A DNA stretch of 64,000 nucleotides from Alphaproteobacteria bacterium (GTDB lineage Bacteria > Pseudomonadota > Alphaproteobacteria > UBA7887): the NCBI GenBank assembly GCA_965201155.1, contig OZ241752.1, forward strand, positions 328,755 through 392,754. The letters run 5' to 3'. The notes below the pieces were generated by a model that worked only from the letters and a program-made list of their open reading frames with translations, made no database searches and had not been told where the DNA came from. Of this stretch, positions 19,931-25,735 are shown one piece after another. The stretch's first letter is position 1. Each line of letters opens with the position of its first letter. The position numbers and the translations under genes were made by a program.

Positions 19931-21222
19931 GGGAGGCTCTCGTAATTTGATTTCTTGTTTTCCTTGGTTGATTTGTCGGTTTTGTGGGGATGAAAGAGTC
20001 GGTGGAACTACGGATCAGGTGGGGAAAACGGTTCCCGACAGCGGTTGGAGAGCCTGAAACGGTTCACAGGGCACATAGGCCCCCCGTGTTCGGCATTCTA
20101 TTGAACCCTGTCGCAGCAGAGGGGCCGGTGGTTCGCCCGCAGCCAGACAAGCCGGCGCAGGTTGTACACCAGGTTCATCATGCCGATCTTGAAGCGTGCC
20201 CGGACCATGCCGATAGTCCTGACCCGCTTGCCGCCCATCGCTTCGTGTTGAGCAAAGACATGTTCGACGACCGCGCGCACCTTCGAACGCTTGCGGTTGG
20301 CTTCCTGGGAGCGCACAGGCAAGGGGCGGTTGCGATGCCCCTTGCGGTGAATGTGGCTGCGCCAGCCTCGTTCGGCCAGCAACCGCCTCATGGTGGCGAC
20401 TGCTGTAGGCACTGTCGGCCCAGACGGCGCCACTGGTATTCGTCTCATCAAGCACCTGTTCGAACATCTTGCTGTCGTGACACGCCGCATCGCTCGCCTC
20501 CCAGCGACGGACAAGACGATACGCACGGTCCACGCTGATGTGGTTCTTGTATCCGTAATGGGTTTCATTTCTCTTGCGCGTCCAGCGTGCGTCAGTGTCC
20601 TTGTGACGGCGCTTCTTCTGCGACCATTCGGACGGAACCTTCCCCGCCTTCACCTGTGCGTTCTCGTCGCGGCTGTTGCGTTGACGCGGCGCCTTCACAA
20701 AGCTCGCATCCACGATCTGTCCCCTGCGCGCCACATAGCCCTGGTCCTCGATCTGCGAGGACAGTTCCGAAAACAGGCTGTCAAACGCCTCCGCGAGTTT
20801 CAGGTTCTCCCGAAACCGCCAGATGGTCTTTGCATCGGGCACCGTATCCTCGGGATGCAGCCCCAGGAACCGGGCGAACGAATAGCGGTCGCGGATCTGG
20901 AACTCCGTCTGGTCGTCGCTCAGGTTGTACATTTGCTGCAAGACCAGAACCCGGAACATGAGAACCCGGTCGTATTCCCTGCGACCGGCATTGCTCTTGC
21001 GCGGCTTCGACAGTGCCGCGTCCAGCGCCGGGCGAAACCCCTCCCAGTCCACAGCACCGGACAGCTTCATCAACGGATCACCCAATCCGTCAAGCTTGGC
21101 AAACCGCTCTTCAAGGTCGAAAAAACCCGGCATTCCCATCAAACCTGCCTCCCAGAACAACAAGGCAGATTATACCACATAAATGGAAAAATCAGAGGAT
21201 TTTGAGAGGCTCCCTTATCTCA
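19931..21222 (-). mobile_element. IS5-family insertion sequence, copy 1 (~1.29 kb), transposase frameshifted
   Basis: Terminal inverted repeat GGGAGGCTCTC at both ends. Nearly identical to the copy at 24449-25735 but in inverted orientation. The outer 170 bp are 100% identical between copies. Confidence 0.8.
20015..21163 (-). pseudogene. IS5-family DDE transposase with a +1 frameshift (extra G in a GGCGG run, ~20375), relative to the intact copy
   Basis: Copy-2 protein reads ...SRHHEALLAERGWRSHIHRKG...; copy 1 reads ...SRHHEAVAGRTR..., and the correct C-terminus sits in a separate frame (ORF 20098-20568). Direct nucleotide comparison gives caccatgaggcgGttgctggcc in copy 1 versus caccatgaggcgttgctggcc in copy 2. 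Confidence 0.7.
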
Positions 21223-21570
21223 ACCAGAGAGATATTCCGTGAAATCGAGAGACAGGAAGACAATCTTCTGAAATGGGCAACGGTAAACAGAGCAATATTC
21301 ACGACGCCGAGACCGGAGGAAGGGGCGTTTGTGGCAAGGATATACAAAGTCCCCCACTTCCAGGCAAACATTGAGAAAAAGAAGCTCGTCCGAGGCGGGA
21401 ATGTCGCGGATCCGTTCGTCGTCGCTAAGGCGGCCGTAATGGAAATGCCGGTGGTAACCGTCGAAAAATATCGCCCCAATGCTGCCAAGGTCCCCAACAT
21501 CTGCCAGCATTTCGGTGTGCCCTGCCTCAGCTTCGAAGAATTCATGCAGCACGAGGGCTGGCGATTTTGA
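21223..21570 (+). pseudogene. N-terminally truncated DUF4411/PIN-like family gene remnant (low-GC), cut by IS copy 1
   Basis: The ~115-aa reading frame continues out of the IS end and terminates ...DPFVVAKAAVMEMPVVTVEKYRPNAAKVPNICQHFGVPCLSFEEFMQHEGWRF. This resembles the C-terminal half of DUF4411 PIN-like proteins as I recall them (from memory, not searched). GC is ~50% against ~67% background. No start codon or N-terminal ~40 aa are present. Confidence 0.4.
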
Positions 21571-21581
21571 AACCGGCGCCA

Positions 21582-24154: not shown

Positions 24155-24427
24155 TTACAGCAGTTCGTTGCCTATAGGCGGGGCGTCAAGCCATGCCCGG
24201 TCCCGATCTTCGGCCGGAGCGGTTTCGTCGCACTGCGCCAGCAGTTCTTCAGGCGTATAGTGCGGGCGGCCTCGTGGCGCGACGATCGAGCGGCGGCCCT
24301 CGACGCCAATATCTACCTTGGCGCCAGCCTGAAGGTCGAGGAGGTCAAGAAGAGCCGGGGGCACTGCGAGCATGACGGAACCGCCAACCTTGCGTAGATT
24401 CGTAGTATGCACGCGGCCCTCCCACAT
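24155..24427 (-). CDS. pemI: PemI/MazE-like (AbrB/SpoVT fold) type II antitoxin, orphan
   Basis: VHTTNLRKVGGSVMLAVPPALLDLLDLQAG...PHYTPEELLAQCD...DRAWLDAPPIGNELL aligns closely with my recollection of the R100 PemI sequence. The true start is probably the GTG at 24412. The IS copy-2 end lies ~25-40 bp upstream. There is no intact toxin gene downstream. Confidence 0.7.
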   Translation of the reverse strand: MWEGRVHTTNLRKVGGSVMLAVPPALLDLLDLQAGAKVDIGVEGRRSIVAPRGRPHYTPEELLAQCDETAPAEDRDRAWLDAPPIGNELL

Positions 24428-24448
24428 TAAATCTCAATGTAACTCATT

Positions 24449-25735
24449 ATGGGAGGCTCTCAAAATCGCCTACTTTTCTCATTTATGTTGTATAATCCGG
24501 GTTGTTGTCTCGGGAGGCGGATTTGATGGGCATGCCGGGTTTTTTCGATCTTGAAGAACGGTTCGCAAAGCTTGACGGATTGGGCGATCCGTTGGCGAAG
24601 CTGTCCGGTTCTGTGAACTGGGAAGGGTTTCGCCCGGCGCTGGACGCGGCACTGTCGAAGCCGCGCAAGAGCAATGCCGGTCGCAGGGAATACGACCGGG
24701 TTCTCATGTTCCGGGTTCTGGTCTTGCAGCAAATGTACAACCTGAGCGACGACCAGACAGAGTTCCAGATCCGGGACCGCTATTCGTTCGCCCGGTTCCT
24801 GGGGCTGCATCCCGAGGATACGGTGCCCGATGCAAAGACCATCTGGCGGTTTCGGGAGAACCTGAAACTCGCGGAGGCGTTTGACAGCCTGTTTTCGGAA
24901 CTGTCCTCGCAGATCGAGGACCAGGGCTATGTGGCGCGCAGGGGACAGATCGTGGATGCGAGCTTTGTGAAGGCGCCGCGTCAACGCAACAGCCGCGACG
25001 AGAACGCACAGGTGAAGGCGGGGAAGGTTCCGTCCGAATGGTCGCAGAAGAAGCGTCGTCACAAGGACACCGACGCACGCTGGACGCGCAAGAGAAATGA
25101 AACCCATTACGGATACAAGAACCACATCAGCGTGGACCGTGCGTATCGTCTTGTCCGTCGCTGGGAGGCGAGCGATGCGGCGTGTCACGACAGCAAGATG
25201 TTCGAACAGGTGCTTGATGAGACGAATACCAGTGGCGCTGTCTGGGCCGACAGTGCCTACAGCAGTCGCCACCATGAGGCGTTGCTGGCCGAACGAGGCT
25301 GGCGCAGCCACATTCACCGCAAGGGGCATCGCAACCGCCCCTTGCCTGTGCGCTCCCAGGAAGCCAACCGCAAGCGTTCGAAGGTGCGCGCGGTCGTCGA
25401 ACATGTCTTTGCTCAACACGAAGCGATGGGCGGCAAGCGGGTCAGGACTATCGGCATGGTCCGGGCACGCTTCAAGATCGGCATGATGAACCTGGTGTAC
25501 AACCTGCGCCGGCTTGTCTGGCTGCGGGCGAACCACCGGCCCCTCTGCTGCGACAGGGTTCAATAGAATGCCGAACACGGGGGGCCTATGTGCCCTGTGA
25601 ACCGTTTCAGGCTCTCCAACCGCTGTCGGGAACCGTTTTCCCCACCTGATCCGTAGTTCCACCGACTCTTTCATCCCCACAAAACCGACAAATCAACCAA
25701 GGAAAACAAGAAATCAAATTACGAGAGCCTCCCTG
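24449..25735 (+). mobile_element. IS5-family insertion sequence, copy 2 (~1.29 kb), transposase intact
   Basis: GGGAGGCTCTC terminal inverted repeats. The internal sequence is near-identical to copy 1. Confidence 0.8.
24526..25566 (+). CDS. IS5-family DDE transposase (intact)
   Basis: MGMPGFFDLEERFAKLDGLGDPL... with a DDE_Tnp_1-like body, 346-354 aa. The long antisense ORF (24460-25680) is treated as an artefact. Confidence 0.8.
   Translation: MGMPGFFDLEERFAKLDGLGDPLAKLSGSVNWEGFRPALDAALSKPRKSNAGRREYDRVLMFRVLVLQQMYNLSDDQTEFQIRDRYSFARFLGLHPEDTVPDAKTIWRFRENLKLAEAFDSLFSELSSQIEDQGYVARRGQIVDASFVKAPRQRNSRDENAQVKAGKVPSEWSQKKRRHKDTDARWTRKRNETHYGYKNHISVDRAYRLVRRWEASDAACHDSKMFEQVLDETNTSGAVWADSAYSSRHHEALLAERGWRSHIHRKGHRNRPLPVRSQEANRKRSKVRAVVEHVFAQHEAMGGKRVRTIGMVRARFKIGMMNLVYNLRRLVWLRANHRPLCCDRVQ

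Follow-up and report, generated by a model that had tools for sequence, protein, structure and literature searches.

Two inverted copies of an IS5-family element beside ubiD are probably separate, rearranged insertions around native lldD and phaZ genes

When two inverted copies of one insertion sequence (IS) enclose 3.2 kb of metabolic genes in a bacterial chromosome, did they bring these genes in as a composite transposon, or did they come to lie around genes that were already there? A first-pass annotation of the window (the whole 64,000-nt stretch of DNA analysed here) had raised both possibilities, with an lldD-phaZ-pemI segment as the putative cargo. The features that bear on this question are collected in Table 1.

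Table 1. Features of the window around the two IS copies (IRL and IRR, left and right inverted repeats).
Feature	Coordinates	Strand	Description
Sel1-repeat gene remnant	19414-19930	+	Pfam Sel1 E 6.7e-36, 3 repeats; 108-bp repeat units
IS copy 1 (IS1)	19931-21214	-	1284 bp; IRR 19931-19946, IRL 21199-21214; non-autonomous
Frameshifted transposase frame, copy 1	20015-21139	-	374 aa from ATG
DUF4411 (PIN-like) fragment	21215-21570	+	Pfam PF14367 E 1.3e-22, profile 41-159/159
FMN-dependent alpha-hydroxy-acid dehydrogenase (LldD-like, lldD)	21582-22760	-	392 aa; Pfam FMN_dh E 1e-120
PhaZ, intracellular polyhydroxyalkanoate (PHA) depolymerase	22821-24038	-	TIGR01849 514 bits (cutoff 301)
mazF/pemK toxin remnant	24000-24155	-	Pfam PemK_toxin E 1.3e-7, profile 1-35/109
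MazE/PemI-type antitoxin (mazE)	24155-24427	-	90 aa; start 24 bp from copy 2
IS copy 2 (IS2)	24451-25733	+	1283 bp; IRL 24451-24466, IRR 25718-25733
Intact transposase, copy 2	24526-25566	+	346 aa; DUF772 + DDE_Tnp_1
ubiD	25984-27492	+	first gene of ubiD-pmbA-suhB-like-msbA-kdtA-lpxK block

The window contains an inverted repeat pair made of an 834-nt arm at 96% identity and a 455-nt arm at 100%. The ends of the elements were set by a terminal repeat search of the window: GGGAGGCTCTC was found at three ends and GGGAGCCTCTC, which has one mismatch, at the IRL of copy 1, i.e. four matches to the pattern versus 0.13 expected by chance. The match of GGGAGGCTCTC is perfect over 11 positions (11/11) and extends to 14 out of 16, and the same terminal repeats bound the sister copies. 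The limits first proposed (19931-21222 and 24449-25735) were right for the outer end of copy 1, 8 bp too far out for its inner end and 2 bp too far out for each end of copy 2. Full alignment of the two copies gave 32 substitutions and one indel over 1284 columns (97.4% identity), which bears out the initial description of two inverted IS5-family copies with common terminal repeats and more than 95% identity.

Members of the IS5 group of the IS5 family encode their DDE transposase (about 330-350 aa) in a single ORF and generate 4-bp duplications. The element of the window resembles them by its length (about 1.28 kb, within the 1-1.5 kb range), its short terminal inverted repeats and its IS5-type DDE transposase. 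The copy 2 protein was recognised by the NCBIfam model NF033581 'IS5 family' (273.6 bits, cutoff 140) and by Pfam DUF772 (E 2.8e-22) and DDE_Tnp_1 (E 7e-23); the IS1182 and remaining IS5 sub-models among the NCBIfam profiles were below cutoff. The closest transposase proteins outside the source organism are 86% identical, and the next ones at most 76%. In copy 1 an additional G near 20384 causes loss of the frame past ...SSRHHEA (residue 253), before the catalytic E region is reached. Copy 2, with its intact frame, is the only one that looks autonomous, as the first-pass annotation had concluded. A sequencing error, which could have accounted for the extra G, is unlikely because two copies on other contigs (L166 and L168) have this G as well, together with linked substitutions, and because the source genome encodes five frameshift-type protein variants (cluster P0006). 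This 2.9-Mb genome has roughly twelve copies of the element, with 14 distinct transposase variants or fragments that fall into two protein clusters (13 of the 14 are on the 2,926,781-bp contig), and the +G variant makes up about one third of the copies.

The differences between copies 1 and 2 are very unevenly distributed. Within the first 174 bp from the IRL, where 27 of the 32 substitutions are clustered, they differ by 15%; there is no substitution beyond position 830, and the last 453 bp, on the IRR side, are identical. The 309/606/789/+G haplotype of copy 1 is common to L166 and L168, and copy 2 differs by one base from a copy found in an unrelated context (L001). Judged by its sequence, copy 1 is a mosaic, a hybrid of two variants of the element. 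Hybrid IS copies, together with scars of IS-mediated deletion or recombination, have been catalogued for IS26 in plasmids (PMC4471558).

Direct reading of the flanks gave TACA-copy 1-TTAT and TTAT-copy 2-TGCA, identical to what had been reported (outer flanks TACA and TGCA, inner flanks TTAT twice), and no 4-bp target-site duplication at either copy. In this the two copies differ from the IS5 group and from their own kin, since AT-rich 4-bp duplications could be demonstrated in sister and related copies. A relative which is 74% identical and has the same GGGAGGCTCTC ends displays perfect 4-bp duplications in 8 copies out of 8 (TTAA, TTAA, TACA, TTGA, TTAG, TATA, TTCA and ATAA), the sister copy L167 is flanked by ATAA on both sides, and several more distant relatives on long contigs also have 4-bp duplications. 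To judge from these sites, the targets of the element are 4-bp, AT-rich sequences of the T..A type. Both IRR flanks start with TG (TGTA and TGCA), which may reflect a target preference, the sole explanation that we offer. Among relatives from JGI metagenomes (80 loci, at most 68% identical, the majority on 1-3 kb contigs with probably chimeric flanks), an exact 4-bp repeat was seen in 5 of 50. Inverted repeats one base longer (A...T) combined with a 2-bp duplication were also considered; copies L173 and L176 vary at precisely these two positions and keep 4-bp repeats, and this variant was rejected. The element normally duplicates 4 bp cleanly, and the missing duplications at copies 1 and 2 are therefore meaningful; they support the earlier suggestion of a later rearrangement. 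Mismatched flanks were found in three further sister copies (L001, L166 and L168).

Copy 1 sits between two different truncated genes, a Sel1 pseudogene and a DUF4411 fragment. The Sel1 remnant, on its outer side, has a signal-peptide-like N-terminus and an in-frame TAG (19621-19623) spanned by a repeat unit; it is cut by copy 1 in the middle of a codon, past the first base of codon 173, and no other Sel1 sequence is found elsewhere in the window. On the inner side, the DUF4411 fragment lacks about 40 N-terminal codons and its frame is open right up to the copy 1 boundary. Neither the Sel1 gene at the outer flank nor the DUF4411 fragment nor the mazF stump described below had been mentioned in the first-pass annotation. 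Two plain, independent insertions, with duplications never made or mutated away and no rearrangement, cannot yield two unrelated truncated genes around copy 1. They would also require each 4-bp pair to have acquired two to three mismatches while the elements themselves stayed nearly identical, against the perfect score of the closest multi-copy relative (8/8). Read in IS orientation, the two IRL flanks are ATAA and TTAT, typical targets as plain insertions would have it, and several metagenomic relatives on short contigs likewise show no clear duplication; on balance we hold this scenario to be very unlikely.

The segment between the copies is of two kinds. The lldD product can safely be described as an FMN-dependent alpha-hydroxy-acid dehydrogenase. 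Its earlier naming as an FMN-dependent lactate dehydrogenase holds for the FMN_dh family (Table 1), with lactate as a putative substrate at most: the NCBIfam models of LldD score below cutoff (NF008398, 271.8 versus 376; NF033901, 235.4 versus 550). The identification of a polyhydroxybutyrate depolymerase gene was confirmed (Table 1). The GC and GC3 values of lldD and phaZ (0.648 and 0.746 for the latter) are equal to those of ubiD, pmbA and secA. As to the antitoxin gene, said to be an orphan, it is MazE-like, with a weak match (Pfam MazE_antitoxin E 0.0016; NCBIfam MazE 47.5 bits, below cutoff), and behind it lies the overlooked mazF stump, which consists of 29 codons and a TGA followed by a short decayed stretch ending at phaZ. 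With such an antitoxin, and a toxin gene cut to 29 codons plus decayed sequence, there is no intact mazEF/pemIK module between the copies. The GC content is 0.52 for the DUF4411 fragment and 0.59 for the mazE/mazF' remnant, versus 0.65. Only these two parts look accessory, and the accessory DNA around the copies is degraded.

Comparison with relatives, whose UbiD proteins are 78-85% identical to that of the window, provides the ancestral arrangement. In the four closest available ones (L068, L006, L177 and L178; UbiD 81-85%), the gene for the same 392-aa dehydrogenase is, as in the window, the immediate upstream neighbour of ubiD, in divergent orientation. The identity of these lldD orthologues (71-77%) lies between that of UbiD (81-85%) and that of PmbA (68-72%). 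A fifth relative, L007, has the order phaZ(-)-GNAT-ubiD, with a 60% identical phaZ and without lldD. No IS is present at the lldD/phaZ-ubiD site in any of the five, and the ubiD block of the window remains syntenic with relatives to about position 33716. Because their composition and divergence match those of core genes, and because of their place beside ubiD in relatives, lldD and phaZ are native, and in their native orientation. The suggestion that the copies had inserted into an older island has to be dropped for these two genes; it may stand for the DUF4411 fragment and the mazE/mazF' remnant, which look accessory by their GC content. Close relatives with the same genes in the same context and no IS had been named at the outset as the observation that would speak against a transposon, and this is essentially what was found, in relatives at 78-85% UbiD identity. 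No UbiD between 85% and 100% identity exists among the 5.8 billion proteins searched, and exact-protein look-ups with UbiD and the dehydrogenase, aimed at a strain-level empty site, yielded nothing but short-read contigs interrupted at these same IS ends.

Three further observations concern this neighbourhood. The presence of phaZ at the ubiD locus was seen in one relative only (L007). Upstream of ubiD and of lldD, the intergenic DNA has diverged too far from that of the relatives for breakpoint mapping. Lastly, the ancestral ubiA-lldD adjacency is also broken in the source genome. A prediction that ubiA and rsmE, the ancestral left neighbours, would be found beside another IS copy carrying the N-terminus of the DUF4411 gene was not borne out at the ubiA locus: there is no IS in the 8 kb examined, and a glycosyltransferase cluster starts 15 bp later, with no overlap with the window. 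The ubiA/lldD break is therefore not attributable to copy 1, and neither is all of the local rearrangement.

At the sequence level, the pair has several attributes of a composite transposon: inverted copies, intact and usable outer ends, and one intact transposase. Such a transposon, IS-lldD-phaZ-mazE-IS, would have moved via its outer IRR ends into the Sel1 gene, within its 3' part and just before ubiD, one TACA flank having later become TGCA. The outer flanks agree at three positions out of four, and their joining (...CAGTACA to ACCAACTACG..., i.e. Sel1 into the ubiD upstream region) gives the Sel1 frame a short open end. However, with the T..A target preference taken into account, chance gives a three-out-of-four match in about 44% of cases, and the identity of the IRR-proximal 453 bp makes a mutation within the 8 bp of duplication unlikely. 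The TACA and TGCA flanks do not form a duplication round the whole unit. The cargo is not foreign: lldD and phaZ are core-like in composition and divergence, and with lldD by ubiD in four relatives and phaZ in a fifth, a transposon would need to have placed this very gene at this very site, and in the orientation seen in the relatives. Neither the IS nor the 3.2-kb segment has a match among 72,556 plasmids, and exact-protein look-ups revealed no second context for the segment. Import of lldD-phaZ-pemI by a composite transposon, as envisaged in the first-pass annotation, thus appears close to refuted, and we leave it a very slim chance. The likeness to compound transposons of the Tn5/Tn10 type (an inverted IS pair with one defective member, a few kb of non-IS genes, intact outer ends) stops at the segment itself, which here is the native ubiD neighbourhood and has neither a unit duplication nor a second context.

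The inverted configuration and the lack of a duplication at each copy could alternatively have a one-step origin, either duplicative inversion (intramolecular replicative transposition of a single IS in trans) or recombination between two simple insertions, which would have inverted the 3.2 kb and swapped the inner flanks. Duplicative inversion has been described for IS26 and Tn4401, where it leaves a diagnostic pattern: the outer flank of one copy, once reverse-complemented, equals the inner flank of its partner (PMC4471558). In addition, the long identical stretch shared by copies 1 and 2 is a good substrate for recombination. The flanks do not show this pattern: TACA does not pair with ATAA, the reverse complement of TTAT, nor does TTAT with TGCA, which is its own reverse complement. 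Moreover, with respect to ubiD, lldD and phaZ point the same way in the window and in relatives, which means no net inversion, and a divergence of 15% within the first 174 bp is not what a fresh duplicate would show. A single-step event is, in our opinion, highly improbable. Whichever way the flanks are paired, as simple insertions, as a composite or as an inversion, TACA/TTAT and TTAT/TGCA fail to match.

Assemblies classically go wrong at repeats of 1.3 kb, and the metagenome contigs with the sister copies have low coverage (2-4x); collapsed or misjoined IS copies could in principle have produced mispaired flanks. The junction between the IRR of copy 2 and ubiD is, however, reproduced base for base in two independent short-read assemblies of other runs (L002 and L003) and that between the IRL of copy 1 and DUF4411' in a third (L004). 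The inner 3.2 kb is collinear in these assemblies, and the IRL ends differ enough to distinguish the copies. An assembly artefact can hardly be entertained, and is the least probable of the explanations considered.

We consider it probable that the pair consists of separate copies of one IS5-family element around a mostly native 3.2 kb, rearranged in place after insertion. The element transposes by its DDE (catalytic Asp-Asp-Glu) transposase, in the usual way, into AT-rich targets of the T..A type, with 4-bp duplications. Homologous recombination among IS copies would then have swapped one flank of each copy; IS-mediated adjacent deletion is an alternative with the same outcome for the flanks. 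Copy 1 now links the truncated Sel1 pseudogene with the truncated DUF4411 gene, and copy 2 links the decayed mazEF remnant with the region upstream of ubiD. The genes lldD and phaZ are ancestral upstream neighbours of ubiD that kept their orientation. A compound-transposon architecture would thus have been built in place, with no sign of past movement. For both copies, the best reading is a scar left by IS-mediated recombination or deletion; the exact order of these events is what we infer from the present arrangement. Comparable scars were described for IS26 by He et al. (2015), also with unmatched flanks, truncated genes abutting the IS and many copies with unpaired flanks. The differences are that the window element is chromosomal and of the IS5, cut-and-paste type, whereas IS26 is a replicative IS6-family element of plasmids, and that the window does not show the inverted flanks by which duplicative inversion is recognised.

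A further possibility is that the pair is a newborn compound transposon and that the +G variant is kept by trans mobilisation or as a truncated DNA-binding inhibitor; we regard this as unlikely. On this reading, chance and recombination would have let two copies of an expanding IS bracket native metabolic genes, an alpha-hydroxy-acid dehydrogenase and a PHA depolymerase gene, which the pair, having an intact transposase and good outer ends on both sides, could now mobilise. It is also plausible that the inverted copies serve as a substrate for inversion of the 3.2-kb segment, an event that would separate ubiD from the neighbours conserved upstream of it.

To conclude, the copy pair is ordinary IS debris in an IS-rich genome and not an imported composite transposon. 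This matters little past annotation: the label of a transposon-borne lldD-phaZ island should be avoided for the region, and copy 1 marks a deletion or rearrangement junction. The source is an uncultured alphaproteobacterium with no relative above 85% UbiD identity, and most of the element copies sampled have mismatched flanks, which are a useful flag for studies of genome stability or synteny.

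All the structures described by the first-pass annotation were found in the window; their limits and those of neighbouring features are collected in the table. A repeat search returned a single long inverted pair, divided by one indel, and the terminal sequence GGGAGGCTCTC(R)(W)AAT occurred four times (0.13 expected). These four occurrences fix the ends of the elements, and the limits first proposed overshoot them by 8 bp and 2 bp. Membership of the IS5 family was borne out by the transposase of IS2 (copy 2), which has the Pfam domains DUF772 and DDE_Tnp_1 and scores 273.6 bits against the NCBIfam model NF033581 'IS5 family transposase' (cutoff 140). 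In IS1 (copy 1), the single additional G that had been noticed lies near 20384 and causes loss of frame past residue 253, ahead of the catalytic-glutamate region. The plus-strand flanks, TACA-IS1-TTAT and TTAT-IS2-TGCA, also agree with the earlier reading. The IS2/ubiD junction was reproduced in independent short-read assemblies from other runs (L002 and L003), as were the IS1/DUF4411' junction and the collinear inner segment (L004 and L005), which argues against misassembly.

Features of the inverted IS pair and of its surroundings
Feature	Position	Strand	Remarks
SPFH/Band 7 protein gene	4676-7411		911 aa
Sel1-repeat gene remnant	from 19414		IS1 on its right; Tyr-to-stop TAG (19621-19623) within a repeat
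IS1	19931-21214	minus	1284 bp, limits from terminal sequence
Inverted arms	19929-20383 with 25281-25735		455 nt, 100%; repeat search
Inverted arms	20384-21217 with 24448-25281		834 nt, 96%; repeat search
FMN-dependent alpha-hydroxy-acid dehydrogenase ('lldD')	21582-22760	minus	Pfam FMN_dh, E 1e-120
PhaZ	between dehydrogenase and mazE side	minus	TIGR01849, 514 bits
IS2	24451-25733	plus	1283 bp, limits from terminal sequence
IS2 transposase ORF	24526-25566	plus	uninterrupted, 346 aa
ubiD	right of IS2, 250 bp away		
Third, unrelated transposase gene	34536-35648	minus	DDE_Tnp_1 and DDE_Tnp_1_assoc, ISAs1-like, 370 aa
tRNA-Leu(CAA) gene	35801-35887	plus	just past the ISAs1-like gene

Other contigs of a single ENA metagenome carry the exact IS2 transposase and near-identical variants. 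Clustering at 90% gave groups of 9 and 5 different protein variants or fragments, and 13 of these occur on a single 2,926,781-bp contig, which indicates about a dozen copies in the source genome. The 4-bp target duplication expected by the annotation is a genuine habit of this element, at T..A-type, AT-rich targets. A relative that is 74% identical and shares the GGGAGGCTCTC termini was retrieved in eight copies from long contigs, all with perfect duplications (TTAA, TTAA, TACA, TTGA, TTAG, TATA, TTCA and ATAA), and the sister copy L167 has ATAA on both sides. The bases immediately outside GGGAGG...CCTCCC vary in two copies of the relative and thus belong to the target, not to the element. TTAT/ATAA is a favoured target, accounting for 7 of 12 sampled flanks of the window IS. 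The T..A preference explains TTAT at both inner flanks as a coincidence, and the three-of-four match between TACA and TGCA is unremarkable, as both begin and end with the preferred bases.

Shuffled flanks appear to be normal in this organism: of four sister copies sampled (L001, L166, L167 and L168), three have flanks that disagree (ATCA/TTAT, TAAA/ATTG and ATAA/TTAT). Counting the two window copies, 5 of 6 are mismatched (ENA ERZ25068762 for the sisters), in contrast to the 8/8 perfect duplications of the relative (L169-L176, ENA ERZ26167216), which suggests unusually heavy IS-IS recombination in the window organism. The L167 copy is itself split, at 3985-5591, by a 1.6-kb nested element encoding a 487-aa DDE_Tnp_1_4 transposase; the split IS sequence overlaps by 7 bp, and there is a 9-bp duplication inside the copy as well.

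None of the one-step models accounts for the flanks in the window. Two simple insertions would need TACA=TTAT and TTAT=TGCA; had the unit transposed as a whole, TACA would have to equal TGCA. If two simply inserted copies had recombined to invert the segment, or if intramolecular replicative transposition had caused a duplicative inversion (the flank signature of which is described for IS26, PMC4471558), TACA=rc(TTAT) and TTAT=rc(TGCA) would be required. As gene orientation is unchanged, there was no net inversion either, and each copy must have had one flank swapped or removed by events that involved other copies or adjacent DNA.

The composition of IS1 points the same way. Of its 32 substitutions relative to IS2, 27 lie in the 174 bp nearest the IRL end (left inverted repeat), a 15% divergence that sets it apart among the six copies compared. 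Another five fall in the stretch from 175 to 830, several of them shared, along with the +G, by the sister copies L166 and L168; the last 453 bp have none. IS1 thus reads as a patchwork of variants, as expected of a crossover product, which is direct support for recombination. The annotation's view that the missing duplications hint at later rearrangement is upheld on both counts. Its caveat that the extra G could be a sequencing error is unlikely to hold, because the +G recurs with linked substitutions at other loci (L166, L168) and in five frameshift-type protein variants. It is carried by roughly a third of the source-genome copies; since copies at different loci share the haplotype, defective copies have spread, by trans-mobilisation or gene conversion.

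IS1 sits between two different truncated genes, which simple insertion cannot have produced. On its left, the Sel1-repeat gene, already bearing the Tyr-to-stop change, was later severed after base 1 of codon 173; its remaining part was not found anywhere in the window. The 108-bp tandem periodicity at 19576-19930 corresponds to the 36-residue Sel1 repeat, kept at the DNA level (74-78%), with one unit containing the in-frame TAG. On its right, a DUF4411 gene lacks its first ~40 codons, its frame being open to the IS boundary (profile positions 41-159 of 159). The 'orphan antitoxin' is indeed an antitoxin gene, mazE-like, but not an orphan: it is followed by 29 initial codons of a PemK/MazF toxin, which run into a stop and then decayed sequence, and the two form a degraded toxin-antitoxin pair.

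A composite transposon carrying lldD-phaZ-pemI, as first envisaged, is essentially refuted by comparison with relatives. A UbiD scan with one genome per species gave 80 loci, with top identities of 85% and 81%, and no UbiD between 85% and 100% was found among 5.8 billion proteins. The organism represents an isolated lineage among Rhodospirillales-like alphaproteobacteria. In four relatives (L068, L006, L177 and L178) a 392-aa FMN_dh gene lies immediately upstream of, and divergent from, ubiD, usually with ubiA and rsmE beyond it; in a fifth, L007, phaZ is upstream of ubiD on the opposite strand. Both window genes have the same orientation to ubiD as in the relatives. After ubiD, L068 and L178 have pmbA, an inositol-phosphatase gene, msbA, kdtA and lpxK, the window order at 27.5-33.7 kb. 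The dehydrogenase is 71-77% identical to its four orthologues (UbiD 81-85%, PmbA 68-72% in the same genomes). Its GC of 0.652 (GC3 0.78) and that of phaZ (0.648, GC3 0.75) match ubiD, pmbA and secA; lower GC marks the DUF4411 fragment (0.52) and the mazEF remnant (0.59) as accessory. Nor was the unit found elsewhere: neither the 3.2-kb segment nor the IS had a match among 72,556 plasmids, and exact look-up of the dehydrogenase returned this context only. Because of this synteny, orientation, divergence and composition, without a plasmid or other context, the dehydrogenase and phaZ are native genes in native place and orientation; a composite transposon would have had to insert this gene at just the intergenic site, and in just the orientation, that it has in four other genomes. 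The name 'lldD' denotes likeness, not assignment, since the protein is below the cutoff of both NCBIfam LldD (L-lactate dehydrogenase) models; its conserved association with ubiD and ubiA across five genomes could point to another physiological substrate.

Synteny with the closest relative, L068, stops at about 33.7 kb, near the ISAs1-like and tRNA-Leu(CAA) genes. At the other side of the window, the SPFH/Band 7 gene has degenerate repeats, especially at 5600-6472 (87-bp spacing, 186-nt units, 64-70% identity), in very strong AT skew (0.39-0.41).

We infer the following order of events. Accessory DNA, namely a DUF4411 gene and a mazEF module, would have gathered on opposite sides of native lldD-phaZ. 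IS copies would then have entered TTAT-type sites, one inside the DUF4411 gene and one upstream of mazE. Exchange with other copies by recombination would afterwards have replaced the flanks on the outward-facing IRR (right inverted repeat) side of both; adjacent deletion from the IRR ends is an alternative route to the same loss. IS1 would thereby have come to lie beside the Sel1 pseudogene and IS2 beside the ubiD upstream region, the intervening DNA being gone. Of the two options first offered, unit transposition is all but refuted; independent insertion into an older island fits the accessory DUF4411 and mazEF genes, not the native lldD-phaZ. Reciprocal products of the exchanges were sought but not recovered. 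The organism's ubiA-rsmE block, ancestrally adjoining lldD, is at another locus (L179, 5016-8182, Logan SRR33960554), 15 bp from an unrelated PMT_2/GtrA/GT2 glycosyltransferase cluster past rsmE-ubiA. As no IS lies within 8 kb of it, at least part of the local reshuffling is not attributable to IS1; the conserved ubiquinone-gene neighbourhood (rsmE-ubiA with lldD-ubiD) is broken without an IS at the L179 junction.

To conclude, the structure was correctly observed but is ordinary, and resembles a compound transposon in form only. Native genes and some decayed accessory DNA are flanked by two copies from an expanding IS5-family element, of which one is both defective and chimeric. What is new is limited to the element itself, an IS5-family member without a name, from a lineage not studied before.
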